The notes under the pieces: generated by a model
Databases searched by the model: none
The model's input: only the letters and a program-made list of their open reading frames with translations
Told to the model about the DNA's origin: nothing
In this document: positions 5,495 to 52,350 of the stretch, in pieces
Position numbering within the stretch: position 1 is the first letter of the stretch
How the letters are laid out: every line of letters starts with the position of its first letter
DNA from: Planctomycetota bacterium
Lineage (GTDB): Bacteria > Planctomycetota > PUPC01 > JACPCR01
DNA: 64,000 nt
NCBI GenBank assembly: GCA_016179685.1
Contig: JACPCR010000064.1
Span: 181,186-245,185, forward strand
Reading direction: 5' to 3'
Made by a program: the position numbers and the translations under genes

Positions 5495-6811
5495 GTGAGC
5501 CCTGCGCCCTCAAGTGTTCCGCGAGGCCTTCCCGTGTTTCCCTTGTTTCAACAATGCTCGCGAAGTAGCCTCGTCCGAACCGCGCTCGTTTCCCTGCCTT
5601 TGCTCGGGCTGATCCAACCCTCATGGAGTCAGGCCCAGGACGGGCCCTCCGGCATCCTGCATGCCTTTGCCACACGGCTTACACAGACGGAGGAGCGGCT
5701 TCCCATCATCCTCAGGGCGGCTGAGTTGGCGGCCCGGCGTTTCCTGGAGCACGAGGACGCCTTCATCAATGTGCCGTACGCCGTCCAAATGTCCTTCGCG
5801 GAAGAGATCGTGAACCGCGCCGGCGGCTTGGCCAACGCTCTTCCAGCAGAAGAACGGCCAGGCCACGCCTCTGCCCACGACATCGCGCTGCTCAGTGTCA
5901 GGGCCTGGAACGTCGACGGACCCGCCATTCTCGAACTGGCCAAGGAATACCGGCGGCGGGGCTGGATGGTCATCCTCTTCGCCTCTGAGTCCGGACGGCC
6001 CGATGGCCTCGAGATCGCCTTCCTCGTAGATAACGGAGCGCGTTCGGGCGCGGCCGCTCATGCCCCCGTCAACGCCCTGATTAATGTGCTCCACGCACAC
6101 CTCTGGGCATCCGAATTTGCGGCGGCACTCACCCGCCGGGACCGCTTCCCCGGCGTCCTCCTGTCCGTCGCCGTCGCTGGCTCCGACGAACATAATCGAA
6201 AGGTCCGGGCCAACCCGGGGACCCGATTTCTGGGCGAATGCGGGACCCGCATGCCCCCTGGGACTGCCGCTCGTGTCTACCTCGAACAGGTTCGGCGACT
6301 GGCCGACTCCCTTGCGGGCGAACGGACCCAACAACAGGTCCAAGCGGCCGCAGACCTCGTCCGCTCCACACTGGATTCAGGTAAACGAGTGAAGGTTTCG
6401 TCCTGCACCCATTTTCTAATGTCCGAGATCTTCCAGAACCGCCTGACCCCGCTCGAGCCCTTCCCGATCGTCTGGCAGTCCTCGAATACCGCCAGACATC
6501 TTGGCCGTGACGACCTCATGATCTGGTTTGGCTACGTGGGCATGAGCACGATCTATGAAGATTACGGCGGCGCGTTGCGACGTACGGGTGCAAAGCTTGT
6601 GGCCAGTTACGTGCCGGACCAGAATAGGGCTAATAACGCTGCCGACGCCGCCTGTCTCATCGAGCAGACCTGGGAACCACCCGACGCAGTCGTCCCTATT
6701 CCTTTCCCTCCGGATTGCATGAGCCCCGTCAGCGGCCTCAATGTTGGACTGCTCTATCGAATGCTCGAAGAGAAAATTCTGGAACTTCTGGGCAACCGGT
6801 CTGCGGAATGA
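5495..6811 (+). CDS. hypothetical protein, possibly secreted
   Basis: 438-aa ORF with non-repetitive composition; GTG at 5495, true start uncertain (hydrophobic stretch LVSLPLLGLIQP near N-terminus); no family recognised. Confidence 0.5.
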   Translation: MSPAPSSVPRGLPVFPLFQQCSRSSLVRTALVSLPLLGLIQPSWSQAQDGPSGILHAFATRLTQTEERLPIILRAAELAARRFLEHEDAFINVPYAVQMSFAEEIVNRAGGLANALPAEERPGHASAHDIALLSVRAWNVDGPAILELAKEYRRRGWMVILFASESGRPDGLEIAFLVDNGARSGAAAHAPVNALINVLHAHLWASEFAAALTRRDRFPGVLLSVAVAGSDEHNRKVRANPGTRFLGECGTRMPPGTAARVYLEQVRRLADSLAGERTQQQVQAAADLVRSTLDSGKRVKVSSCTHFLMSEIFQNRLTPLEPFPIVWQSSNTARHLGRDDLMIWFGYVGMSTIYEDYGGALRRTGAKLVASYVPDQNRANNAADAACLIEQTWEPPDAVVPIPFPPDCMSPVSGLNVGLLYRMLEEKILELLGNRSAE

Positions 6812-6866
6812 CAGGGTGCGAAATGGTGAGCGGGGGATTCCGCTCTGGCTTCGTGGTCAGCCTGTC

Positions 6867-6914
6867 CCCCGTACACGAAATTGGAAGTGCATGCGCACTT
6901 CCAATTTCGTGTAC
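6867..6914. repeat. REP-like palindrome, perfect 20-bp stem, core GGAAGTGC-ATGC-GCACTTCC
   Basis: ccGTACACGAAATTGGAAGTGC atgc GCACTTCCAATTTCGTGTACgg in intergenic DNA. Confidence 0.8.
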
Positions 6915-7027
6915 GGGACGGTTTGAGGCAGTGCTGTCACGACCGTTCAGATCCTGCCCCACGTATCCGGTGAGTGCGCCCCACCCACTTAGGTGATGCT
7001 CGACGTACCACCGGCAACAAGGCTTCG

Positions 7028-7429
7028 CTAGTTGTACTTCAAGGCAATCTTCCTCGGTCTCGCGGCCTCGGCCTTGGGCAGGATCACCTGCAATACGCCG
7101 TTTCTCATCGAGGCCTCGATCCGGTTCACATCAAACTCGTCCGAAAGAGTGAATGACCTGCGGAAATTGCCCGGAGGATACTCCTGGACCTTCAACTCAT
7201 AGCCCGGAAATTCTTCCTCCTGGATGTGGCCGGTGAGCGTCAGAACGGCGTTCTCCAGCTCCACGTCCACGGATTTCTCATTCACACCGGGCATGTCCGC
7301 CAGGAGTACCAGTTCCTTGTCGCGCTCGAAAATGTCACAGCGAGGCACATACGTCGAGCAGCTTCGAGTAGCTTCCGGGGCCGCTGGAGCGTTGCTCCCA
7401 TACTTCCGAACATGCGTTTCCATTGACAT
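7028..7429 (-). CDS. Hsp20/alpha-crystallin family small heat shock protein
   Basis: 133-aa ORF; alpha-crystallin domain pattern (DIFE...VLLADMPGV...GVLQVILPK). Confidence 0.85.
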   Translation of the reverse strand: MSMETHVRKYGSNAPAAPEATRSCSTYVPRCDIFERDKELVLLADMPGVNEKSVDVELENAVLTLTGHIQEEEFPGYELKVQEYPPGNFRRSFTLSDEFDVNRIEASMRNGVLQVILPKAEAARPRKIALKYN

Positions 7430-7494
7430 GGTCTTGATCCTCCTTTAAGAGTCGAACTCCGATTCCAAGGCGACGCCCATGAAGAGGCGGCGCG

Positions 7495-7938
7495 TCAAAG
7501 TGCCTTGACCTGGACTTGCCTTGGCTTGTCGGCCTCGACACGCGGCAGCGTGATGCGCAAGACGCCCGACTGGTACGCTGCCTGAACCTTTTCGGGATCC
7601 ACACGCACGGGAAGCTCGATCGTACGGATGAAATTGCCCGTGCGTCTCTCCTGCCGATGATAAACTTCCCCCTCCTTCAGGTCTTCAGGCCGGCGTCGGC
7701 CACTCAACGTCAAGGTGTCGCCAAGAACTGAAATCTCGATATCGCTCGGGGCGACACCAGGCATCTCCGCGGTCACCACCATGTCATCCTTACCCGACCA
7801 AACATTGATCCGCGGAAAAGCACTGGTCACGCCGCTCGTGTCCATCTCACCGAACAGGCGATCCATTTCCTGATGCAGACGCCACATGTCAGGCCAGAGA
7901 CCCCTTGCCCAGTCTCCGCTAAGTTCTCGCTTATGCAT
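7495..7938 (-). CDS. Hsp20/alpha-crystallin family small heat shock protein
   Basis: 147-aa ORF; alpha-crystallin domain pattern (VVTAEMPGV...GVLRITLPR); tandem with 7028..7429. Confidence 0.85.
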   Translation of the reverse strand: MHKRELSGDWARGLWPDMWRLHQEMDRLFGEMDTSGVTSAFPRINVWSGKDDMVVTAEMPGVAPSDIEISVLGDTLTLSGRRRPEDLKEGEVYHRQERRTGNFIRTIELPVRVDPEKVQAAYQSGVLRITLPRVEADKPRQVQVKAL

Positions 7939-8466
7939 ATCTACCTCCTTTCCAAATAAGATGACCTGAACTTGAACTTCGGAACCCCGGTTCCAAACTC
8001 CAGTTTATTGGAAAGCTAAATCCGTTCCAAATCTCACAGTTTATTCGTTAACACTTTTAGCTAAATACTTTACATTAGAATCAGTAAATCATAATTAGAA
8101 ACCCAGCTAATTTGACAGGCCAGAATGACATAATATAGATGCCGTTATGACAGTAAGCCATATTGGCATATTCTCTGAGACGCTAATTTGCCCAGACTTC
8201 TCTTCCGCCGAGGTCTGGCATCGGTTCTTGTGAAGGAAACGATACTGCATGCGCCTTCACAAAGAGCTGTACAGACCTCTCGCACCATTAAATCGGCCGA
8301 GAATGAAGTAGGGGGCTGTTCTAGAGCCGAGCCGATTTTCTGGGTCATCACGATTGAGCGGTCTCTGTAACATAGACTATGCGGCTCGACGCGATTCAGC
8401 GCGCGTTTCCCTCTGACCCGTAAAGATTACGGCTGGCCGCCGGTATCCATACCGGGGTCGGGATCG

Positions 8467-39602: not shown

Positions 39603-40691
39603 GTGTTTTACGGTCTGTTCCAATCCCTCGGCCCGTGGCCGCACGACGGCCTTCTCCTCCGCGCCTTGCTGGCGGCGCTCACGGCCGCACTCCTGGGCCT
39701 CGTTGCTGCGCCGAAGCTCATCCGTAGGCTCAAGGCCCGCAAGGTCACCGATCCTTCCAAAGGCTACACGGGCCTCAACCCGGCCAGCAAACAGGGCGTG
39801 CCCATCCTGGGCGGCCTGATCATTCTTGCCGCCCTTTACCTCTCCGCACTCCTCTGGTGCGACCTGACCAACCGGATGGTCCAGGTCGCCCTGGTCTGGG
39901 GCCTGGGTTACGCTGCGCTGGGCTTCTTGGACGACTGGAGCAAGATTCGGCCCGATCAGCGCGGCCTGGGCCTGAACCAGCCGCAAAAGTACGCCGTTCA
40001 GTTCCTGCTGGCCCTTCTCTTGGGAGTCTTGTTCCTATCCCAGGCCTATCTCCCCGTGGAGCGGGCCGTCGCCGGGTCCCTCTACCTTCCCTTCACCTCG
40101 ATCTGGCGCTGGAATCTCTCGTGGGGTTACTTGGCAGTGATTGTTTTTTTTCTCATCTATGCGGCCAATGCCGTCAACATCACGGACGGGATGGACGGGC
40201 TGGCGACCTTCCCGGCGATGCTGCTGGCCGCGGTCCTCGGTCTCGCGGCCTTCATCCTCCATAGCCCGGCGACGGCATCCTCCTTCCGATTCGAGCCCGT
40301 GCCCGGCAGCGGCGAGTGTGTCGTGCTCCTGGCCGCGCTTCTCGGGGCCTGCGGCGCATTCCTCTGGTACAACGCCTATCCGGCCACCATCTTTATGGGG
40401 GACACCGGCTCGATCGCCCTGGGCGGCATCCTGGGAACGGTGGCCGTCCTGCTGAAGCAGGAGATTCTTTTCCTGATCGTCGGCGGGGTTTTCTTGATCG
40501 AGACGGCCAGCAGCTTCCTTCAGACCTACGTCGGCGTCGGTCTGCTTGGCCGGCGTCTCTTCTTCCGCGCCCCGCTCCACGACCACTGGCTCTACCAGGG
40601 CCTGAGCGAATCGAAGGTCACGCTCCGCCTCTGGCTGCTCTCCCTCCTCTTCGCCATCCTGGGCCTGGCGGCCCTGGAGCTTCGGCTCTAG
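39603..40691 (+). CDS. mraY: phospho-N-acetylmuramoyl-pentapeptide-transferase
   Basis: ORF 39390..40691; likely GTG start at 39603 just after upstream stop; motifs NAVNITDGMDGLA, YPATIFMGDTGSIALGG, HDHW closely match MraY (GT4 polyprenyl-phosphate transferase family). Confidence 0.75.
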   Translation: MFYGLFQSLGPWPHDGLLLRALLAALTAALLGLVAAPKLIRRLKARKVTDPSKGYTGLNPASKQGVPILGGLIILAALYLSALLWCDLTNRMVQVALVWGLGYAALGFLDDWSKIRPDQRGLGLNQPQKYAVQFLLALLLGVLFLSQAYLPVERAVAGSLYLPFTSIWRWNLSWGYLAVIVFFLIYAANAVNITDGMDGLATFPAMLLAAVLGLAAFILHSPATASSFRFEPVPGSGECVVLLAALLGACGAFLWYNAYPATIFMGDTGSIALGGILGTVAVLLKQEILFLIVGGVFLIETASSFLQTYVGVGLLGRRLFFRAPLHDHWLYQGLSESKVTLRLWLLSLLFAILGLAALELRL

Positions 40692-41048
40692 GAAATGGCA
40701 AAGCCAAGCAAGTTGACAGAAAGGCGTGAATCCTTATAAGGGAGTCTTATAGCTCCCGCAAATAACTGCTCTTGTGAGTGTTGGCCATAGAGGCCATAAA
40801 TCTGATATATTCTTACCTTAGATCACTTACGTGCCGATACCAGCGAGACCCGCCTGCGCCGCGGGCGCGGCAGGCAGGCGTTGGCATTTCCAGTTAGGTT
40901 TTTGCGGCTGCTCTTAGGTTGTCACTTCCCCGCGCCCGCCTCCCATAGTCCCAACGGGATCCCTCCCGCCGGGATAAGTTCGGCGGGCACCCGGCGGAGA
41001 TCTTTCACGGTCATGGAAGCGCTTTGCTTCCGCATCGGGAGTTGCAAT

Positions 41049-41444
41049 ATGGCTGACTCTGAAATTCTTCCCGAGGGGAAAGTAGCTTCATCGGGAAAAC
41101 ATGGGGAAGTCAAGTTTGACTACATCAAGAGCAATCATTTTCGGGTAATCTATGCTGACGGTGTCTGGGGTGGTCTAACTCCACGTCTCAAGATGCAGAT
41201 CACATTTTGGAATGAACGCCACCCCATCCCCAGGCAAATCGTTCAGGAACTCACGGAGAAAGAACAGCCGGGTAGAGAATTAAGGCGAGAATCCAGAGAG
41301 GCAATCGTTCGAGAACTCGAGGCTTCGGTCATCATGGACCTCGAGGTGGCCCGCTCTTTCTGCAAGTGGCTCACCGAAAAGATTGAGAAAGCTGACCAAC
41401 TCTTGGCCCAACACAAAGAATCAGAAAAAAAGGAGAATCGTTGA
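41049..41444 (+). CDS. hypothetical protein (island cassette gene 1)
   Basis: within ORF 40881..41444; ATG 41049 preceded by GGGAG; lower-GC region; C-terminal predicted helical/charged tail; no family recognised. Confidence 0.5.
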   Translation: MADSEILPEGKVASSGKHGEVKFDYIKSNHFRVIYADGVWGGLTPRLKMQITFWNERHPIPRQIVQELTEKEQPGRELRRESREAIVRELEASVIMDLEVARSFCKWLTEKIEKADQLLAQHKESEKKENR

Positions 41445-42040
41445 TGCCACCGGCGAGTGCAATGTCCGATGTTATTCGCGCAGGTTCTCACTGCACCAGC
41501 ACTCTTGACTTGAGAGTGCCCCTTCCAGGAGCCAGTCAACTAGAATATGCAGCGTGCTTCCGAAATCCTATTGCCCTGGGTGAAGAGATTCCTTCAGAAT
41601 CCCCATCGGATTGGCCTGTGCCGTTGGACGAGGCGACCGTGGATGCCCTGGGTGAACATAATCTTTCGGAGTTCCCATCGGATTTGACATTTTCCGAACC
41701 TTGCAGCGAGCGAGATCTGGAAGATTATCTCAGAAGTCTCGAAGATGAGGGGTTTATTCCCTCCTCGATGAGGAGGAGCGCTCTGAAACTGTGGAAAACT
41801 TTAGAGCATCTTTCAGGTCATTGTTTGACGATTCCGGGTGCTGCTCCAGGCCCTGACGGGAAGTTATTCCTCGTTTGGGGTGAGGGCGAGCACCACTTCG
41901 AGGCCGAGTTGATCCCTGACAACCCGATAGAGTTCTTCTACATGAACCGCGGAACCAACGAGACTTGGAGTGGAGAGGCTGCTGATGAGAATGAGGTATC
42001 CCACGAAATCGTAGAGAAGCTGATGTCTCTTTGGGGGTAG
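41444..42040 (+). CDS. hypothetical protein (island cassette gene 2)
   Basis: ATG 41444 overlaps upstream stop (TGATG), AAGGAG 9 nt upstream; acidic protein; no family recognised. Confidence 0.5.
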   Translation: MPPASAMSDVIRAGSHCTSTLDLRVPLPGASQLEYAACFRNPIALGEEIPSESPSDWPVPLDEATVDALGEHNLSEFPSDLTFSEPCSERDLEDYLRSLEDEGFIPSSMRRSALKLWKTLEHLSGHCLTIPGAAPGPDGKLFLVWGEGEHHFEAELIPDNPIEFFYMNRGTNETWSGEAADENEVSHEIVEKLMSLWG

Positions 42041-42044
42041 CCTC

Positions 42045-42533
42045 ATGCCCGCAGTGAAGCGAGGGGTGGAGGGCGAGCCCTTACCCGGCGAGGAAGTCGT
42101 TTTCCGTCTCTGGCGGAAAGGAAAGGATGGCACGCGCGATGAATTGGTGGCCGCTTTTGAGTTGTCAAGCGATGAGAGGCGGTCACTACGCCCCACGTTG
42201 TCAGTTTTTGCTGAGGGGCTCACTTCCCATGAACAGGCATTCGAAATTACTGGGAAGAATTCGTTGAAGCGACTCGTGCTCCGAATGCAGGTCTGCGAAA
42301 TTCGGAAGATCGACTTGGTGCCTCCTGACCTGAATTTTCGTGGTCTCGATGTCATCTGGGTCCAAGCCAAACTGCAGGAGAATGGCCGAGAAGTCCCGGA
42401 CGAAAGACCGGGTGCTGAAGGTCATGCTGGAATTTTGGGACTCAGTAGCCCTCCAAACAAGAACTCTAGAAAAGTACTTCGAGTGAAACTTGCCGAATTA
42501 GCCTACCACAACGATCCCTTTGACAAACGTTGA
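42045..42533 (+). CDS. hypothetical protein (island cassette gene 3)
   Basis: 162-aa ORF 5 nt after previous stop; no family recognised. Confidence 0.5.
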   Translation: MPAVKRGVEGEPLPGEEVVFRLWRKGKDGTRDELVAAFELSSDERRSLRPTLSVFAEGLTSHEQAFEITGKNSLKRLVLRMQVCEIRKIDLVPPDLNFRGLDVIWVQAKLQENGREVPDERPGAEGHAGILGLSSPPNKNSRKVLRVKLAELAYHNDPFDKR

Positions 42534-42638
42534 CGGCGAGTGCAGGTACCCGGCAATCACGTCCGATGAGTCCCATCCTCTGATCGAATACCCGCACCGA
42601 GAATCCAGTCAGGTTCTGCAGATAGCGCAGCTTCTTGT

Positions 42639-44681
42639 TTACTCCAGAATAAGCGATTTCGTCAGAAGCTTCTCGATGTAGGTGGCCTTGTCTTCCTTCT
42701 GGAAAAGCACATGGTGCTTCTCGAAGGAGGCCTTGTTCGTCCCGCCCTCCCACCAAGTGACTTCCTCCCGGCGGGTACTTGAAAGGATGAAGGAATTCAG
42801 GATGACGGCTGGATCGCCTATCCGGCCCTCCAACTCTTTGATCGTGGCGTGGAAACGAATCTTCGGGTCGTTCTTGCCCTCAAGATTCCGGATGCCTTTG
42901 GGATCAATGAAGGTGATGTGCTGGCGGCTGCCCGATAGAAGCCAGAGGATGAAATCCGGGTAGAAGTTCCCCGCCTCGAAGAACCCGATACCCCGGCCCC
43001 GGCTCTGGTTGCGTAACAGGTAGAGTTCCTTCTCCTTGAAGAAGCCCTTGTTGCTGTCGAAGAAGGAGCGCAGGTCGAGGACGAATTCCCTTTCGCCTTC
43101 GTTCAGGGAAACCGGTCGGACCTCGATGTTGTCGCCCTTGAGGTAGAGGAGAGGGCGGTAGAGGTGCTGGCCGAAGCAGATGCCGCGAAACCGGTCGTGC
43201 TCGATGTCCCGCCATTCGCCCCGCTCCACGGCCTGCTTCAGTTCCTTGAGCTTGGCGATGATTTCCTTCTCGGATTCGTCAATCAGAATGCGGTATTCTT
43301 CGATGAAGTTGGGGTCGTCCGGGCGCAGTTCCCGATACTCTAGGTGTGGATTCTCATACTCCGCCTTCCGGTAATAGTAGTAACGCTCGCAGTATTTCTT
43401 CAGCAGGGCGATCGCCACCTCTTCCCATGCCCGAACCCTGCCGAAGCGGGTCAGGCTTAGCTCCGTTTCGGGAATGTAGAGCGTATACCAGTCCGACCGA
43501 GCCAGCAGACTTCGCACCTGCTCCCTGGACAGGCTGAGGTTATGCCAGGCCTTCTCGCTCTTGAAGTGCTCAAGCTCGAAGAACACGCGGTCGAAATCCA
43601 TGAAAGCCAACTGGACGTCCCGCAGCTTCCCTTCGTGCTGTTCGGCAGCGCCCTGACTCGTTCCCGCGCCGCGGCTGATGTGCGCTTGGACTCTCGGATA
43701 CCAGTCCAGGACGACCGGATACCTGACCAGATGTTCCGGCGGCACGTCGAGCGCCGGCTTGGGTCCGTCCCGCTTGAAATCAATGCCGTCTTTCAGCTTG
43801 AGAGTCTTGAGCTTCGTCTGGCCGAGGTTCTTCAGGACGGGCAGGACAAACTCCATCCGATCTTCGTTGGACGGCAGCCCCTCCTCTTCGAGGTATTCCT
43901 TGAACTGCCGCATGTAATCGGCCCGGATGCCGAAGATGTGAATGTCGATGATTTCCACGGATTTCCCGGCGAACAGCCCACGCCCGTCCTTCGAGAACAT
44001 TTCCGCCTGAAGCCCGGACAGCCCGAATTCCTCCAGGTGTTGCCTCGATAGCCCTTCGTTGGGAGTCAGGAGAATGATGCGATTGAGGTTGCGTTCCTTG
44101 CCGTGCTGGGCCAGGTAGTGTCGATACTGAAGCAGGTTGACGTGCATGAGCAGCGTCTTGCCCGACCCAGTGGCGCTCCAGAAGGCCAGCTTATTGAGCT
44201 GCTCCGGCTCGTAGGGCTGAATCTTGTCCCCCTCTGTTTTGTCCTCGTTGAAGCGCCTGACGAACGCGTTCAGGTCATTGAGCAGGGTATCCGGATTCTG
44301 GAAGTAACGGTCGAGGTAAATCTCCGTGAACAGCAGCGAGAGGTATTGGAAATACTTCGGGTAGAGGTTGTTGGCCTGGTGGCGCTTCTCGGTGATGACT
44401 CGCCAGTGGCGGACAATGTTTTGGTCGTATTGGAGAAGCAGGTCCGAGGGAAGCTGCTTGCGCTGGAATAGGCGGGCTTTGAGGACGTGGTGATAATGGC
44501 TGACGCCTTCGCCGTCGAACCCCTCCAGGTTTGGGCTTTTCAGCTCCTCGGCGAGCTGGCCAATGCGTTCGACCTCGAACAGGTCGAGCCTCCACTGGGC
44601 GAGGACGAGGCGCTCGTCGAATTTGAGGCGGGTCTCGCGGCGGGTTGGGCCGGCTCTCCTTCGGGCGGTTCCTGAAGGCAT
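42639..44681 (-). CDS. restriction-endonuclease-like P-loop NTPase (Res-like: helicase-type ATPase with C-terminal PD-(D/E)xK-like motif)
   Basis: 680-aa ORF; Walker A FWSATGSGKT; degenerate motif II-like IIDIH (no DExH); C-terminal YPDFILW...TFIDPKG fits PD...(D/E)xK nuclease pattern; last gene of the mod-containing minus-strand array. Confidence 0.55.
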   Translation of the reverse strand: MPSGTARRRAGPTRRETRLKFDERLVLAQWRLDLFEVERIGQLAEELKSPNLEGFDGEGVSHYHHVLKARLFQRKQLPSDLLLQYDQNIVRHWRVITEKRHQANNLYPKYFQYLSLLFTEIYLDRYFQNPDTLLNDLNAFVRRFNEDKTEGDKIQPYEPEQLNKLAFWSATGSGKTLLMHVNLLQYRHYLAQHGKERNLNRIILLTPNEGLSRQHLEEFGLSGLQAEMFSKDGRGLFAGKSVEIIDIHIFGIRADYMRQFKEYLEEEGLPSNEDRMEFVLPVLKNLGQTKLKTLKLKDGIDFKRDGPKPALDVPPEHLVRYPVVLDWYPRVQAHISRGAGTSQGAAEQHEGKLRDVQLAFMDFDRVFFELEHFKSEKAWHNLSLSREQVRSLLARSDWYTLYIPETELSLTRFGRVRAWEEVAIALLKKYCERYYYYRKAEYENPHLEYRELRPDDPNFIEEYRILIDESEKEIIAKLKELKQAVERGEWRDIEHDRFRGICFGQHLYRPLLYLKGDNIEVRPVSLNEGEREFVLDLRSFFDSNKGFFKEKELYLLRNQSRGRGIGFFEAGNFYPDFILWLLSGSRQHITFIDPKGIRNLEGKNDPKIRFHATIKELEGRIGDPAVILNSFILSSTRREEVTWWEGGTNKASFEKHHVLFQKEDKATYIEKLLTKSLILE

Positions 44682-44687
44682 CGGTGG

Positions 44688-45013
44688 CTAAGGTGATGGA
44701 AGAGGAATTTCAACATACTGGCCGGGTTTCACGGTCTTCAGTGTTTGCTCGATGACGGACAGAAGGCCGGCCACCATCGGAACCTGGTTGCTGGGAAGAA
44801 CCACCACTGCGAGCTTTATTGCGGCAAGGTTCTGCTGATAGCGTAAGTTCTTGTCCGTGGTCATGAAGACGTCAAACTCGTTCTCCGCTCGCCTGAGCAA
44901 TTCGCCGTTCTTCAGCCCGCTCCACAAACCATTTCCTGAACGGTTCGGATTGCCAGATCGGGAAGTCGCGTCTTCACCAGCCGCGGCACGCACTCATCAA
45001 GTAAGATTCTCAA
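44688..45013 (-). pseudogene. DUF5615-like (PIN-like) toxin-type gene, apparently frameshifted
   Basis: N-terminal ILLDECVPRLVKTRL (DUF5615-like) is read in one frame from TTG ~45013, the remainder (...WSGLKNGELLRRAENEFDVFMTTD...) in ORF 44688..44993; frames differ by 1 nt near 44930. Confidence 0.4.
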
Positions 45014-45255
45014 TTCGACCTACCCAGGCGCAGAAGGGTGGCTTTGGAGAATTCAAGGACTTGTAACGCCTGCTCTCGAGTCACGGAAGGGAAGTTCTCC
45101 AGAAATTCTTCCAGGGTCAGGCCCGCCTCGAGGTTGTCAATGAGGGCTTGCACCGGGACCCGCGTCCCCCGGAAAACGGGCGCTCCGCTGACGATTTCGG
45201 GATCGATGGTTATCGGCAACTGCTCAAGCTCTGCCTCTTCAATGACCAGTGACAT
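45010..45255 (-). CDS. DUF433 family protein (antitoxin-like partner of DUF5615)
   Basis: ORF 45010..45297; start at ATG 45255 with GAAGGAGG upstream; GAPVFRGTRVPVQALIDNLEAG matches DUF433 pattern from memory. Confidence 0.6.
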   Translation of the reverse strand: MSLVIEEAELEQLPITIDPEIVSGAPVFRGTRVPVQALIDNLEAGLTLEEFLENFPSVTREQALQVLEFSKATLLRLGRSN

Positions 45256-45318
45256 CGTGGGCCTCCTTCGTGAGGGTCGGGAATCGACGAGAGCCATTTT
45301 ACTCCAGATTGCCTTCCC

Positions 45319-48300
45319 CTACACGTCCTTCACGTCGAACATCAGCCGCTGGAATTCCTCCTCAATTAGCCGGACTTTCCAGGTCATGTCCTCACGGCGC
45401 AGGTTTTCCAGGTGGTTGTCGCCGTTCACGTAAATCAGGTCGAACTCCTGGTCCCGGGTGTTGTACTTCTGCTTCCGGAAAAACTCGTCCAGGTCCTCGT
45501 TCGACTTCCCTGCCTTCCCGTCGGGAGCAGACAGGTCCTTCAAGCTCCGCCAGATGACCAAAACCTTCTCGCCCTGGGGATTCGTGCCTTGGACGACCCG
45601 GAAGCCCCGGATAACGTCCACGTGCATTACCCGGAGGCCCAGCAGGTAGTTGAAGGTCTCGACCAGGTCCACGGTTGTGGGCCGAGTCTCGCCCGCGCTG
45701 CCGGTGGCGATGTTGAGCTTGTAGAAGAAGGGGTCTTCGAACGCGGCGATGTTCAGCAGCGACGCGCTGCCGCGGCTCTCCACGTCCAGCATATAGGAGA
45801 GGAGGTAGTCCTCCCGGACTCCGTCGTTGGCTTCCAGGAGGGCGGCCTGCAAGTCGGTGCGTTTCAGTTCCAGGTTGTTGAGGGTGTCTTCGTAGGATTT
45901 CAGCCGGAGGTATTTGAAGAGGTGGCTGGAGCCTTCGCGGCTAACCGGCTTGCCGTCTTTCCAGTCCTTGGAGTAGATGACCTTCTGGATGCGTGGCTTG
46001 AGGACGGTATTGAAGTATTCGGCCATCTCGACGAGGATATACTTGCGGCCCCCCCCGGGTCTCGCGCGTCATCGCGATTCAGGTTGATGACGGCATGGCC
46101 CGTGGTGCCGGAACCGGCGAAGAAGTCCAAGACCAAGGAGTCCTCCGCGTCCGAGCAAATAAGCACGCAATCCTTGACAGCGTGTAGGGATTTGGGGAAG
46201 TCGAATGGACTCAGCGGACCAAACATTTCCTTCAATTCTTTCGTTCCATTGTCCCGAGCAGAATAGGCCGGGCTATCCCACCACGTGCGAGGCAGCGACC
46301 CTTCTTCGCGTAAGTACTTCCGTTTGTAAACCTCGTACTTGCCATCTCGCTTCATCACCTTCATTAGACAGACCTCTGCGATCGCCCTTTGAACGCCGAA
46401 GTTCCAGACCTTTTCAACGCCTGAATCGTCAATGGGCCAAATAGCGACTTCGCCGGGACGGGTTTTCTCGTTGATCCTCCAACTTTTACTGGTTTCTAGC
46501 CATTCCATCCCGGGGATCCGCTGTGCGTGATGCGCCTCGTCGAAGTAGATCGGAAAGAATTGCTTCGGTCGGTCTGGTCTGTCCGATCCCCTGCTGCTCT
46601 TCCTGAAGTTCTCCCATTCGAACGGTTTTCCCTCCTCATCTACTTGGTCGTACCTTTGTCGCTGAGAGTCACTGTGAGGCAACCGACCAACTTCGGAAGA
46701 CTGTGCAAGTTTCGAGTAGAACAGCGCGTACTCGTGGTTAATGGCGAACCCCTTCGTCGTAGCGCGACCGGACGGGTTGTTGCGAATCACAACGGTCGCC
46801 ATGTAGTTCTCATCAAAGAAAACACGATCTAACACAGACCTCAGGCGGTGGGATTCGTAGTCATCTATCGTCACGCACAGCAGCCCGTCGCAAGACAGGA
46901 CTTCACGTGAGAGTGCAACTCTATCTTCGACGAGGGAAATCCAAGTCGAGTGCTTGTACTCGTTCTTATACAGAATCTCGCTCTCTATCGCGTTATAAGG
47001 TGGATCGATGTAGATACACTTAATCTGTTCCCTATAGCGTGTTTCTATTAGGTTGAGCGCCTGGAAGTTCTCCCCGTGCACCAGCAGCCCGTCGGTATTC
47101 TCGTCCAGGTCCTGGATGCTGGCCAGCAGGCGGTCTTTGAACTCCGGGTCGAAGAAACGGGTGTCCAACACCAGGAAGGGATTAGCCTTCAGGAACTCCA
47201 CAGTGAGCGGCTTGGAATATTTCGGGGTGTGCAGGTCGCCCTGGATTTCGTCAATGGCGAAGAGGCGGACCCATTCCTCCCGCTGGGCGTCGCTGGCCGC
47301 GATTTCTACGTATAGCTCCCCAGGGACGCGGTCGAGCGTGATGCAGTAGTTCGTCTCGACCACGAACTTCTTCTTGAGCCAGAGCTTCTTCTGGAAGTTC
47401 TCCAGTTGCTCCAGGAAGGCGATGATCTTGTGGGCGATGCGGCGGAGCGCACGGATTTTGCCGAGATACTGCTCCACGCGGGGCGCGGACTCGCTTTCGA
47501 TGTCGTCCAGGTGCATGACCTCGTTCTTGATGTAGAAGTCCAGCTCCCGGCGGAGGAAGCCGCCCAGGTCCTTGTGGATGAAGTAGTCGAAGGTGTTGCG
47601 GGCGGTGTAGTCCGTGAGGTGCTTTTCGAGAAGGGTGCGGTCGGGATTCTTTTCGGTGGGGGCGGGGGTGGAGAGTTCCTCAATCCATTCTTTCGCATTG
47701 GCGGCTTGTAGTGCCCTCTTTAGAGGGTTGCCTTCGTCTGCACTACCCGCATCGAAGAGACCCGCTGTCCCAGCGGGATCCCTATGGGAAAGCGGCACTA
47801 CGAACCCGGAAGCGATGGCGGCGTTGTGATCCGACTGTTTCCGTTTCTGCGGGTCCGGCTGGTAGAGGAAGTGGATGAATAGCTCGTCAGGCTTTATGTC
47901 CACGGGATTCGATTCGCAGAGCATGAACCGGCGCTCCTTGTCGGGCCCGGCTTTCTGGTTGTCCTTCTCGGTGTCGGCTTCGACGAGCTTGAAGTGGACG
48001 CGGCGGCCGGAGGGGAGCTTGAAGGTGTAGTCCCGGAAGTATTCGGACGACTTGACGTAATACTGGTCGTGATTGGCCCAGTGGAGCTTGACCTCCTCGC
48101 CTTCGTAGGGGATGGCATAGACGCCTTCCTTGTAGCGGCGGAGGGAAAGGAAGTCGCCCTCGTGGTAGTAGCGGCGGAAGAAGTTGGTGAGGTCGGAGAA
48201 GATTTCCTGTTCGAGGGCGGCGGGGTCGCCGGCGGACTGGTATTTGGCCTTGAGTTCCTTGACCTTCGGGCTGGTTTCCGGGTCGATGCCAAGTCCTTTG

Positions 48301-48527
48301 GCCTGTTCGATGGCTTCCTTGAGTTGGGACTCGATGACGCGCTGGTCGCCGGACTGGTGTTCGCTTAGGGCATTGCGGACTTGCGGGAGGAGGTCTTTGT
48401 CGAGGAAGCGGGTAATCTCGTCCCGCTTCTGGTTCATGATGCGGTAGATGCCGAAATCGAGGTCGGCCTGGTCGAGCTGGAAGAGCTCGGCGAGCAACCG
48501 CCTCAACTTCTCGAGGTTTTGAGACAT
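45319..48527 (-). CDS. beta-class (N6_N4_Mtase-type) DNA methyltransferase, type III Mod-like, with ~500-aa N-terminal extension; reading frame interrupted at a C8/G8 tract
   Basis: ORF 45900..48527 contains motif IV IYIDPPYN and, ~300 aa later, motif I LDFFAGSGTTGHA (order IV then I = beta class); C-terminus continues in ORF 45319..46026 if the G8 run at 46049-46056 is read as G9 (...NLNRDDARDPGGGRKYILVEMAEYF...). Confidence 0.7.
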
Positions 48528-48546
48528 TGCGACAAACCCTCTGCGT

Positions 48547-49650
48547 CTATTCGTTGTGCTCGAGGAGCACGAATTTCCGTTTCAGGCCGTTCAAACAGTC
48601 GTGGCGGAGATGCCCCTCGTGCTGAAGCCGCCCGACGACGATACCGGGAGCGATACCGAGTTGACGGGCGAAGGCCGAAATGTCCTTCTCGCTTCGGTAC
48701 TTGCCCGTGGTTACCAGCTCGTCGTACTTGGCTTGCGGGATCAGCATCTTCACCGCGAAACGGTCCGCCTCCGTTTCCTCCATGCTCTTCGGCTTCTCCT
48801 TGTCGTCGACGAAGGCGGCCCTCTTGCCGTGCAAGAGTATGTGGCCTGCCTCGTGGAAGAAGCTGAACCAGAAATGGTCGTCGCTCTTATGCCGAAGGCT
48901 GAGCATCAGGAGGGCCTTGTCCTTGCTCAGCCAGCGTGTCGCGCCGCTGAGGTGCGTGCCCGGCAACTCCGCTACGAAGACGACGGCTACGCCGGCGTCG
49001 CAACAGAGGGCCTTCATCTTCGGCTCGAAGATGGCAGGCTCCGCGTTGGTGACCGACTGAATCTCCCGTAGCGCCGCGAGGAACCGTTCTTTGTCGTAGC
49101 GCGAGCAGACAACTTCCCGCGCCCACAGCTCCCCGATCCGTAGCCACGCCGTCAGGGACTCGGGAGCGCTCTTGAATGCAGGGGAATGCCTATAGGCTAC
49201 GTTGAGACCGGCGTAGGCTTCTTGCCAGGCCTCCACGCTTCCCACACCGAAGAAAGCAAGAAGGGAGGCAACGAGCTCGGCTGGGTCATCGGTTTTGGGA
49301 ATCAACCGGCGTTCAGCAAGCTCCTTGATGGGGAACTTCCTTGCCCACGCTTCCTGGCCCTCAAGCGCGGACCGGTCGGCAGCCTTGGCCGCGTGGAGCC
49401 GGAACAGACCATCCAGGTTGTTCCAGACCGCAGCGGACACGCCAAGGACCCTCTCCAGTTGGATGGCAGTCTCCGACGTGACGTTAGCCTTTCCAGTGAT
49501 GATTTGGCTAACCGTCTTCTCGCTCAGACCGCACCGTTGGGCCAGGTCCGTCCCCTTCATGCCCTTCGCTTCCAGGGTCTCCTTCAAGATCTCTCCCGGG
49601 TGAACGGCGTAGTCGGGATGGAATTCGTTCCTATCCGTGCTAAGTGTCAT
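48547..49650 (-). CDS. HigA-like HTH (XRE family) antitoxin domain fused to ImmA/IrrE-family metallopeptidase domain
   Basis: 367-aa ORF; N-terminal HPGEILKE...LSEKTVSQIITGKANVT HTH; C-terminal FFHEAGHILLH HExxH zinc-peptidase motif (COG2856-like). Confidence 0.7.
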   Translation of the reverse strand: MTLSTDRNEFHPDYAVHPGEILKETLEAKGMKGTDLAQRCGLSEKTVSQIITGKANVTSETAIQLERVLGVSAAVWNNLDGLFRLHAAKAADRSALEGQEAWARKFPIKELAERRLIPKTDDPAELVASLLAFFGVGSVEAWQEAYAGLNVAYRHSPAFKSAPESLTAWLRIGELWAREVVCSRYDKERFLAALREIQSVTNAEPAIFEPKMKALCCDAGVAVVFVAELPGTHLSGATRWLSKDKALLMLSLRHKSDDHFWFSFFHEAGHILLHGKRAAFVDDKEKPKSMEETEADRFAVKMLIPQAKYDELVTTGKYRSEKDISAFARQLGIAPGIVVGRLQHEGHLRHDCLNGLKRKFVLLEHNE

Positions 49651-49985
49651 CGGTGGTAGTCCTCCAGGCTCAGGATGCGGATAGTGGTGATCCGGGTAAG
49701 GTCGATGCCCCCGTCAGGTTTGAGCGGCAGGTCGGCCTCAGCGGGCCCAAAAACGAGACGGAAGGGATGTTTGAGGTCAACGGCGAACTGCCCCTTCCTG
49801 TTCCCCGTCAACTCGTGTCGGCGCGTGGGCGGCACGTGGGGGACCTCGGCGAGTGTCGGGGCAGCTCGAAGGAAGGCCATGCGCTTCATGATAACCTTCC
49901 CGTTCTCTGCGCCGTACTCGCGGCATAGTGCCTTCTCGGAATTGAAGGTCTTAGCCATCTTGTCGTTCCCGAACAGGATGTTCAT
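49647..49985 (-). CDS. HigB-like (RelE/ParE superfamily) toxin
   Basis: 112-aa ORF overlapping downstream gene by 4 nt; resembles plasmid-maintenance-system-killer/HigB toxins (KALCREYG...LTGNRKGQFAVDL...FRLVF). Confidence 0.6.
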   Translation of the reverse strand: MNILFGNDKMAKTFNSEKALCREYGAENGKVIMKRMAFLRAAPTLAEVPHVPPTRRHELTGNRKGQFAVDLKHPFRLVFGPAEADLPLKPDGGIDLTRITTIRILSLEDYHR

Positions 49986-50050
49986 CCCCGCCTCATTATA
50001 ATCAGTTTACCTAAAAGGTAAAGCTTTTTCTCGCGTTCGCACCAGGAGTC

Positions 50051-51543
50051 TCAGGTGACCGACCATCGGATGGTGAAGAGATGCTCCACAGTTGTTCGCT
50101 GGGTCATTCGCTTTTCGAGCGCGGCGATGAGCGTGTCCCGCTTCGCCAGAATCTCATCTTCGAGGTCGAAAATCTTCTGCCGCTGTTTCCGCTGCTTCTG
50201 CTCCAGGTCCCGGATTTGGACCTACAACTGATGCTGCTCTTCAGTGGTGGCAGACATCCGGGCCTGCCGGTTCAGCGCCCGGATCTGCGCTTTGGTGTCC
50301 GCCAACTCCTTTTCCGCGGCCAGAACTTTATCCTCCGCCCATTTCTCCAGCCGTTCCCGCTCCTCCTGGAGGAAGCGGTTGTTCATCTCAAGGGAGCGGC
50401 TGATGGTGGCTTTGACGTGCCGCTGGGCTTCCTTGCCGAGCCGGTCTTTTATTTCCTGCGGCTGGCTTTCCAAAGGGGAAGCCTTGCCATTGCAAAGGAA
50501 AAGCTTCTCGCAGGTTTCCTGGTTCACGGGCCGGGCGGAATCGTCCAGCGCGGAGAAGAGGAGGTATTCCTCCCGGTCGAAGGATTCGATGACGAGCCGC
50601 TGAAGCACGAGCCAGCCGGAGTTGCCTTTGAGGGCCTCCACTACGGAAAGCCGGGTGGGATGGCTGGTGATATCGAAGGCGACTTCCGCGAGCGGGGTCG
50701 GGCAGGAGCGGCCTTCGCTGAGCGCGTGCTGGCCGAGCGGATGGGAGAGGCGATAGAGGAACTCGCCGGAAACGTTCTGCTGGGACTTGGAGATGAGGTG
50801 GTATCGGCCGGGCCGGACGCCATCGCAAGGGGCGGCGTGAAGGTCGAAGTGAAGCGCCTGGTCGTCAAAGCTGGCCGCGTTCCGCAGGATAAACTTGGTC
50901 AGCGCCCAGAAGAGCTTGCCGAAGCGGTCGAGCTGCTCGCGGGCGCTGTCGAGCTGCACTCTCAGGCGGGCGTGGACCTCTTCATCGAAGTGTTCGAGGA
51001 GGATGCGGCGGGTCTCGTCGATCCGGGACTTGATGGAGGATTCGAGTTCGGCGCGGAGCTGCTGGAACGCGGCTTCGATCTCGCCGGGCGTCCGGCACTG
51101 CTGATAGATGGCGAGGATGCGCTTTTCAAAGTCCACGCCGGATTCGATGGTGCCGAGGACTTCGTCCGACGCGCCGAAGACGCCCGTGAAGAGGTTGAAC
51201 TTATCCTGGAGTTCGAGCGACCACTGCTTGCGGATGGATGCCGGGCAGATGACAAGGAGTCGGCGGCGCTGCTCTGTCCAATGCTGTGGCACAGGACAAG
51301 CCCCGCCTCGATGGTCTTGCCCAAGCCGACCTCATCCGCCAGGATGACGCCTTTGGAGATGGGTGAGCGGAGGGCAAAGAGCGCGGCGTCAATCTGGTGG
51401 GGGTTGAGGTCCACGCAGGCGTCGAACAAGGACCGGGAGATGCGGTCCACTCCGGTTGTCGGCCCCTGGCGGGTCAGTTCGTAGGCATAGTAGCGGGCGT
51501 GGTAGGGAGTGCTCACGACCGGGCCAATCTCCGGGGCTATCAA
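50051..51543 (-). pseudogene. SNF2-family helicase remnant (frameshift, in-frame TAG, helicase core apparently missing)
   Basis: N-terminus in ORF 50962..51543 has SNF2 motif I (ILADEVGLGKTIEAG); continuation LVICPASIRKQW is in a different frame (ORF 50222..51292); reading continues in frame through TAG at 50222-50224 for 56 more codons; no DExH or motif VI seen. Confidence 0.5.
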
Positions 51544-51684
51544 GACAAGTGGGCCTGTTTCTGAAGCCGTGAAGGCGGCCTCCAGGACAGCATTCTATCC
51601 ATTTGTCTTTGCGCGTTCCGACCGAGACAATCCAATCGGACACAGGACGCATTTCGAACACGCCGTGTAAAAAATCCGGGCCAG

Positions 51685-52350
51685 GTGGTCCCCATTTGGA
51701 ATCGCTGGGTGCTTCAAGTGGAGATTCATCCGGCGGCTGGCCGCACCTGTCCCGCCGCGCTTCGCTCCACTCTGCGTTCCGCCCCGAATGTCATCGCGCT
51801 CGGAGCGATACGGGACCCGGAATCTCTGGCCCTTTGCCTGGAAGCTTCTCTCATGGGCCATCTGGTCCTGGCGGTTCTGCAAGTCGAAGACGCAGCGGCG
51901 GCGCTCCAGCGCATGGTTGAAATGTCGGGCGACCCACTCGTGGTGGCTGATGCAACGAAGCTGGTGGTCTCGCAGAGATTGGTGCGGAAGCTATGCACCC
52001 GATATTCCCGGGAAGAGCCGCCCGGGGATGAGCTTCTCGAGTGGGCCAGGAGCGCGGCGGAGAGCGGAGGCCTGGATTGGGCAACAGCCTCGAAACGCTT
52101 CCGCTCTGCCACGGGGTGTCCTGAGTGCATGAATACGGGATACCGTGGCCGGAACGTCATCGCCGAGGCGCTGGAGGTCACGCCCGGTATCCGGGCCGCG
52201 CTCCGTGAGAGAGCGGCGACCGGTCGTCTTCGGGCCGTGGCCATCGAACAGGGTATGATCTCCTTCAGCGCCCATGGGATTCTGAAAGCGTCGCCAGGCT
52301 TCACCACCTTGGGCGAGATCGCCCGTCACTCGGGCAGCTCATTCGTTTGA
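51685..52350 (+). pseudogene. C-terminal fragment of GspE/PilB-type secretion ATPase
   Basis: 221-aa ORF lacks Walker A/B but retains C-terminal features (PNVIALGAIRD, GHLVLAVLQVED degenerate His box, GCPECMNTGYRGR zinc-knuckle region). Confidence 0.45.

Follow-up and report, generated by a model that had tools for sequence, protein, structure and literature searches.

The window analysed here, a 64,000-nt stretch of DNA from a planctomycete, carries a string of genes in which two small genes of the DUF433 and DUF5615 families lie between the methyltransferase (mod) and restriction (res) genes of a Type III-like restriction-modification (R-M) operon. All of these genes, together with the HigB-like and HigA-type genes next to them, are on the minus strand. 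Read 5' to 3' on that strand, the order is HigB-like, HigA-type, mod (two ORFs), DUF433, DUF5615 (two frames) and res, with the following features.

49647-49985, minus strand: HigB-like gene, 112 aa; the Pfam HigB-like_toxin profile matches at only E 0.037.
48547-49650, minus strand: HigA-type gene, 367 aa, helix-turn-helix plus M78 peptidase (HTH_3, Peptidase_M78; TIGR02607).
45319-48527, minus strand: pseudogene of a Type III-like DNA methyltransferase (mod), in two ORFs, 45900-48527 (875 aa) and 45319-46026 (235 aa).
46049-46056, minus strand: G8 homopolymer (C8 on the plus strand) at which the reading frame of mod is lost; a run of G9 or G6 would keep it.
45010-45255, minus strand: DUF433 (COG2442) antitoxin-type gene, 81 aa, intact; PF04255.
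44688-45013, minus strand: pseudogene of a DUF5615 toxin-type protein (COG4634-type, PIN-like by annotation), TTG start, two frames.
44922-44931, minus strand: frameshift site in the DUF5615 gene, with a net gain of 2 nt over intact relatives that brings a TGA at 44912-44914 into frame.
42639-44681, minus strand: Type III-like restriction subunit gene (res) with an in-frame internal deletion, 680 aa instead of ~1060.
43937-43938, minus strand: res deletion junction between H248 and I249 (VEIIDIH/IFGIRADY), placed by alignment to homologues.

The pair is closely packed against its neighbours. The DUF433 ATG (45255) follows the mod stop (45319) after 63 nt, the stop of DUF433 overlaps the TTG start of DUF5615 (AATTGAG), and 6 nt separate the DUF5615 stop (44688-44690) from the Res ATG (44681). 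The coordinates on which the initial annotation had placed the pair between the methyltransferase and the Res-like gene, with spacings of 63 and 6 nt, are therefore exact. A scan with the sigma-70 consensus gave no internal promoter or terminator above chance in the gene string of this planctomycete host. The sole sigma-70-like promoter match was at 50022-49995, ahead of the HigB-like gene, and this consensus may not be that of the host.

The product of the first gene of the pair matched Pfam PF04255 over profile positions 1-55 of 56 (E 5.3e-21), and with 74.6 bits against a cutoff of 23.6 the DUF433 assignment made in the initial annotation is firm. It also matched PDB entry 2GA1 ('DUF433') with an E value of 4.4e-5. 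Its 81 aa fall within the family range of ~70-85 aa, and an AGGAGG ribosome-binding site lies 8 nt upstream of the ATG. The gene combines a full-domain profile match with a position immediately upstream of a PIN-superfamily gene, the arrangement expected of this antitoxin family. PADLOC and NCBIfam profile searches returned no match for either DUF433 or DUF5615.

The second gene is read in two frames, one at 44912-45013 (33 aa, then a stop) and one from 44688 to ~44930. Neither piece matched Pfam singly, and the two joined into one reading scored 23.9 bits against PF18480, which is marginal for a cutoff of 23.8. The DUF5615 assignment holds through the homologues, which are decisive for family membership. 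The joined reading has more than 3,400 of them, aligned with 95-100% coverage, ~105 aa in length and at best 74% identical. They bear the NCBI name 'DUF5615 family PIN-like protein', and precomputed PF18480 matches exist for those up to 74% identical. The family-invariant and nearly invariant alignment columns are all kept in the joined reading, with D6, E7, D48, T52, D54 and N76 among the conserved acidic and polar residues. For a homologue with 74% identity, a confident structure model (pLDDT 88.8) matched only generic alpha/beta folds in a fold search; by analogy with PIN-type proteins, the DUF5615 protein may be a nuclease.

The frame of this gene is lost after codon 28-29. Homologues read QEMG-WSG at the lesion site, and in a nucleotide alignment five intact relatives have ATGGGC--TGGAGC where the window has ATGGTTTGTGGAGC, a net gain of 2 nt. 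The initial annotation had described a 1-nt shift near 44930; this is correct for the change of phase, but physically a +2 is more likely than a -1. An uninterrupted ORF of ~105 aa is absent here, and since the net +2 nt brings a stop after 33 codons, the gene is a pseudogene of the DUF5615 family and not a functional member. Gene callers predict a 79-aa C-terminal remnant, and exactly this remnant is on record from contigs of five sequencing runs. Because the family-invariant residues are all still present, inactivation of the toxin looks recent. Compared with the nearest relative, the antitoxin of the window is 82% identical and the toxin 73%; this difference is not a sign of relaxed selection on the toxin, as an intact pair (L095) has the same asymmetry.

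We also considered whether the broken toxin could still be made in functional form by programmed frameshifting, transcriptional slippage or assembly of two fragments. The candidate catalytic residues are all retained, and a TTG with an upstream AGGA could start the 79-aa fragment that the gene callers predict. However, this fragment is without the first strand, which carries D6 and E7, inspection of positions 44915-44940 revealed neither a slippery heptamer of the form X XXY YYZ nor a long stretch of A/T, and the intact relatives have no similar shift. Functional expression of the broken gene is thus extremely unlikely.

The host operon has the arrangement of a Type III system, with a mod gene that encodes an N6/N4 methyltransferase domain (Pfam N6_N4_Mtase, E 8e-27) upstream of a co-oriented res. 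The mod product carries DPPY at aa 508 and FAGSG at aa 803. Against the PADLOC MTase_III profile PDLC03646 (1057 positions), the match of the 875-aa ORF extended to position 814 (278-814 being its best stretch), and that of the 235-aa ORF covered positions 825-1053. The gene has no intact ORF owing to the frameshift in the G8, and one G added there yields a single mod ORF of 1069 aa. In the window as a whole, this G8 is the longest run of G/C; it falls late in the gene, at ~codon 826 of 1069. Among 68 homologous mod genes, none had a run of seven or more G at the corresponding place.

The res gene has lost helicase motifs II-VI. In blastp alignments, res aa 1-248 correspond to homologue positions 1-247 and res aa 235-677 to positions 612-1054, and the PADLOC REase_III profile PDLC03654 (E 1.7e-114) aligned its positions 673-1125 with aa 247-674. 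The deletion of ~378 aa (~1.1 kb) removed the DEGH box and helicase motifs III-VI; the Walker A motif GSGKT (aa 172) and a C-terminal YPDF...IDPKG nuclease-like (PD-(D/E)xK-like) motif are kept. The homologues are all 1035-1097 aa long, and all have DEGH and motifs III-VI. What remains here is not a complete superfamily-2 helicase motor (motifs I-VI) with a nuclease domain, and a Type III enzyme without a motor domain should not cleave. An identical 680-aa protein has been deposited from a 'Planctomycetes bacterium' MAG, on a 315-kb contig. A search of 5.8 billion proteins found no closely related intact copy of the operon, the best non-identical Res relative being 62% identical. The view that the locus would otherwise be a mod-res operon was correct in that the pair lies between mod and res, but the operon itself is dead. 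It is a fossil with three lesions, namely the +2 in the toxin gene, the G8 frameshift in mod and the in-frame deletion in res. Of the pair and its host operon, the antitoxin-type gene alone remains intact.

Logan contigs from five separately assembled runs (SRR12113390, -426, -428, -429 and -432), 1.1-17.5 kb in length, were 100.000% identical to the window over their full length, and those spanning a lesion reproduced that lesion. The broken toxin frame of the initial annotation is thus borne out in the assemblies of five runs, and this agreement makes a one-off assembly artefact unlikely as the source of the break. The accession numbers of the five runs are consecutive, so the runs probably sample one population rather than independent lineages, and a systematic error remains compatible with their agreement. 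One may then ask whether the organism in fact has an unbroken, working toxin gene (and mod), both frameshifts being errors of sequencing or assembly, given that a G8 homopolymer is a classic error site and that the toxin retains every family-invariant residue. Such errors would have to recur in five assemblies that are identical over both frameshift sites, and in the toxin gene they would have to produce a +2 change outside any long homopolymer. A T8 at 40144-40151 in a 433-aa glycosyltransferase ORF, like the other homopolymers of the window, breaks no ORF, and the 1.1-kb res deletion in the same operon cannot be a base-calling error. We therefore regard the error explanation as very unlikely.

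Phase-variable Type III mod genes (phasevarions) are known from Haemophilus, Neisseria and Helicobacter, and simple-sequence repeats are a known switching mechanism in such genes. As in a phasevarion, the Type III-like mod gene here owes its loss of frame to a homopolymeric G run within the ORF. The G8, which stands out in 64 kb and where one extra G restores the full-length ORF, could accordingly be a switch by which the operon and its toxin-antitoxin (TA) cargo are turned ON and OFF reversibly, caught in the OFF state. Unlike the repeats of phasevarions, however, this run is not conserved in the family (0/68), lies near the 3' end of the gene and is G8 in all five assemblies, with no length variation seen. 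Moreover, res is irreversibly deleted, and slippage could reverse neither this deletion nor the +2 insertion in the toxin gene. A phase-variation switch is thus quite improbable.

The pair also occurs away from R-M genes. In the 10 loci with the closest toxin homologues (L086-L095), the toxins are 60-73% identical and their DUF433 partners 66-82% identical to those of the window, and DUF433 lies immediately upstream with overlapping stop and start in 10/10. The flanks of these 10 loci contained no mod or res but housekeeping or unrelated genes. Two small co-oriented overlapping genes thus move together between unrelated contexts, as type II TA genes do. As the same two-gene unit is present in all 10 loci outside R-M operons, the pair is a self-contained mobile unit of TA type. 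Around the insert in the window, target-site duplications or recombination scars were not found beyond chance expectation. The best flanking direct repeat (21 nt, 76% identity, 44656-44676 and 45263-45283, 607 nt apart) was taken as chance rather than an insertion scar, because 11 comparable repeat families occur within the same 1 kb.

A survey of homologous mod-res loci for TA insertions, as proposed with the initial annotation, was carried out on 80 loci encoding Res homologues from many phyla (of at least 515 matching). The mod, res and other window proteins were located in each, and mod and res were counted as adjacent when no more than 150 nt apart. Both genes were present in 73 loci, and in 73/73 they were co-oriented with mod upstream. 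They were directly adjacent in 42/73, and 31/73 (~42%) had cargo of 0.4-2.6 kb between them, nearly all of it on the same strand. The cargo came from many unrelated families, as follows; some loci hold more than one type, and for a few inserted ORFs Pfam gave no match, which is why the counts do not have to add up to 31.

AAA_21 ATPase: 8 loci, with DUF4276 in three
Fic/Doc: 5 loci
GmrSD: 2 loci
RhuM: 2 loci
Schlafen-AlbA_2: 2 loci
23S-rRNA-IVP protein: 2 loci
DUF3800: 1 locus
AIPR: 1 locus
YhcG/DUF1016: 1 locus
SMC-like AAA_21 protein: 1 locus
PIN + Phd/YefM (VapBC-like) pair: 1 locus (L073), on the opposite strand
HigB-like / HigA-M78 pair: 1 locus (L036)
Intact DUF433 (E 1.5e-23) + DUF5615 (E 1.3e-23) pair: 1 locus (L054)

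Because 31/73 loci carry cargo at this same junction, the position of the pair between mod and res is not special. A DUF433/DUF5615 pair was found in 1/73, and the members of that pair are only ~36% identical (antitoxin) and ~27% identical (toxin, compared with relatives of the window pair). Such low identity marks it as an independent arrival and not shared ancestry, so that DUF433/DUF5615 pairs have entered the mod-res junction independently at least twice.

These counts also bear on whether DUF433 and DUF5615 might be accessory or regulatory R-M subunits, for example a controller protein and an auxiliary nuclease, rather than an autonomous TA. The tight co-oriented packing with gaps of 63 and 6 nt, in a gene string where an internal promoter was not found, would suit such a role, as would the DNA-binding fold of DUF433 (PMC2701414). 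However, a large part of the family does without any gene between mod and res (42/73), only one locus in 73 has such a pair, and the closest relatives of the two genes sit side by side in housekeeping surroundings, with no R-M genes near them. An accessory-subunit role is highly unlikely.

Taken together, the pair is probably a mobile TA-type module that entered the mod-res junction of a horizontally acquired Type III-like operon as cargo and then decayed with it. Its first gene would encode a DNA-binding antitoxin (DUF433) and its second a PIN-like putative RNase toxin (DUF5615/COG4634); both point the same way as the operon and are probably transcribed with it. By reference to the PIN-COG2442 class, the intact module would have been an addiction or abortive-infection unit, in which a labile DUF433 protein would keep the toxin inactive and control transcription; if the supply of antitoxin failed, the toxin would be released and arrest growth. 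With the +2 frameshift, the gene could give no more than two pieces, an N-terminal peptide of 33 aa and a C-terminal fragment of 79 aa, the latter without the first conserved acidic pair. As for the order of events, restriction may have been lost first, after which methylation would no longer have been needed, and loss of the toxin would never have been selected against.

PIN-COG2442 was predicted as a TA class in which a DUF433 DNA-binding antitoxin is paired with a PIN-superfamily toxin (PMC2701414). One member, VapBC10 (ssr2962/slr1767) of Synechocystis PCC 6803, is a working TA in E. coli whose antitoxin is degraded by ClpXP, and promoter binding and toxin neutralisation by a DUF433-type antitoxin have been demonstrated only for VapB10 (PMC3834315). 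The pair in the window resembles this class in that a short DUF433 gene precedes a short PIN-superfamily gene and overlaps it, and in being bicistronic, mobile and found in many unrelated contexts. It differs from VapBC10, with its canonical PIN toxin (PF01850), in that its toxin belongs to the COG4634/DUF5615 (Mut7-C-like) branch and is frameshifted. COG4634 and PIN_10 have been described as putative toxins in a reduced 'Mut7-C-like' PIN group without a solved structure (PMC5499597). Our literature search found no DUF5615 member or DUF433/DUF5615 pair with an experimental test.

Matelska et al. reported a DUF433-PIN_10 pair in the type I R-M operon hsdM/hsdS/GmrSD of Belliella baltica (PMC5499597). 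As in that module, the same kind of antitoxin and a toxin from a sister Mut7-C-group PIN-like family are found inside an R-M operon, whereas the host operon in the window is Type III-like (mod-res) and its toxin, mod and res are all pseudogenes. PIN-like TA modules in R-M operons are thus already known (PMC5499597), and the present case is different in its Type III-like host and in that all but the antitoxin-type gene are broken. Toxins in R-M operons have also been described as second-line or back-up defence, as with PrrC/EcoprrI, RloC, Doc/Fic and RhuM (PMC3710099). The window shares with these systems a toxin gene in a slot within an R-M operon, and the homologous slots hold Fic, RhuM, AAA_21/DUF4276, GmrSD and AIPR. 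Unlike the PrrC-type toxins, DUF5615 comes with an antitoxin-type partner, and the two genes are also found together away from R-M loci. By itself the locus has little significance; it is a clean example of a decaying defence island, with a different lesion in each broken gene and the antitoxin-type gene surviving.

The gene string belongs to a block of ~11 kb (window ~40700-51700) that has a lower GC content than its flanks and lies directly after a glycosyltransferase-4 (MraY/WecA-type) gene. The GC content is 53-58% over 40.7-48.5 kb and 62.5-64% in the flanks, which fits horizontal acquisition. The block is a horizontally acquired defence island, most of it in ruins. In its lowest-GC part (53%), three tightly packed plus-strand ORFs (40881-42533; ~131-187, 199 and 162 aa) are convergent with res. 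They had no match in Pfam, NCBIfam or PADLOC and are possibly further cargo of the island. At the other end, a 356-aa minus-strand ORF (50222-51292) matched the DISARM SNF2-like helicase DrmD (NF038318, E 7.3e-26) only over positions 556-650 of 868 and probably represents part of a further decayed defence gene beside the R-M operon. A T2SSE/PilT-type ATPase ORF on the plus strand (51685-52350) matched only the C-terminal half of the Pfam profile (187-370 of 370); this gene looks 5'-truncated, and the inserted island may have its right-hand border here.

A second TA-type pair, the HigB-like and HigA-type genes (48547-49985), heads the same gene string. The HigA-type product scored 59.9 bits against TIGR02607 HigA (cutoff 47.7) and matched PADLOC PD-Lambda-2_B with an E value of 7.9e-38. 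Homologues of the HigB-like/HigA-M78 pair, 42-60% identical, were found in two of the surveyed loci, upstream of mod in L055 (1593-3028) and between mod and res in L036 (6551-7955). These occurrences suggest a recurrent association of the HigB/HigA-type pair with this R-M family, or a regulatory role.

A stronger version of the cargo account holds that the mod-res junction is a dedicated, recombination-prone slot whose back-up toxins, DUF433/DUF5615 among them, are coupled to the R-M complex in transcription and perhaps also in function, in the manner of PrrC, and are freed when restriction is disabled. We consider this unlikely. If it were true, the res deletion would have forced inactivation of the toxin, the joint decay of the three genes would be accounted for, and uncharacterised cargo ORFs such as those in L015, L017 and L030 would be candidate new defence genes. 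In this large Type III-like family, which spans phyla, foreign defence and toxin genes at 31/73 mod-res junctions make that junction a practical place to seek uncharacterised defence genes. ORFs without a Pfam match occupy the slot in L015 (~7451-8065), L017 (~5533-6123), L030 (~6845-7888) and L027 (~7160-7957) and are candidates for such genes; the one in L030 resembles a multi-pass membrane protein.
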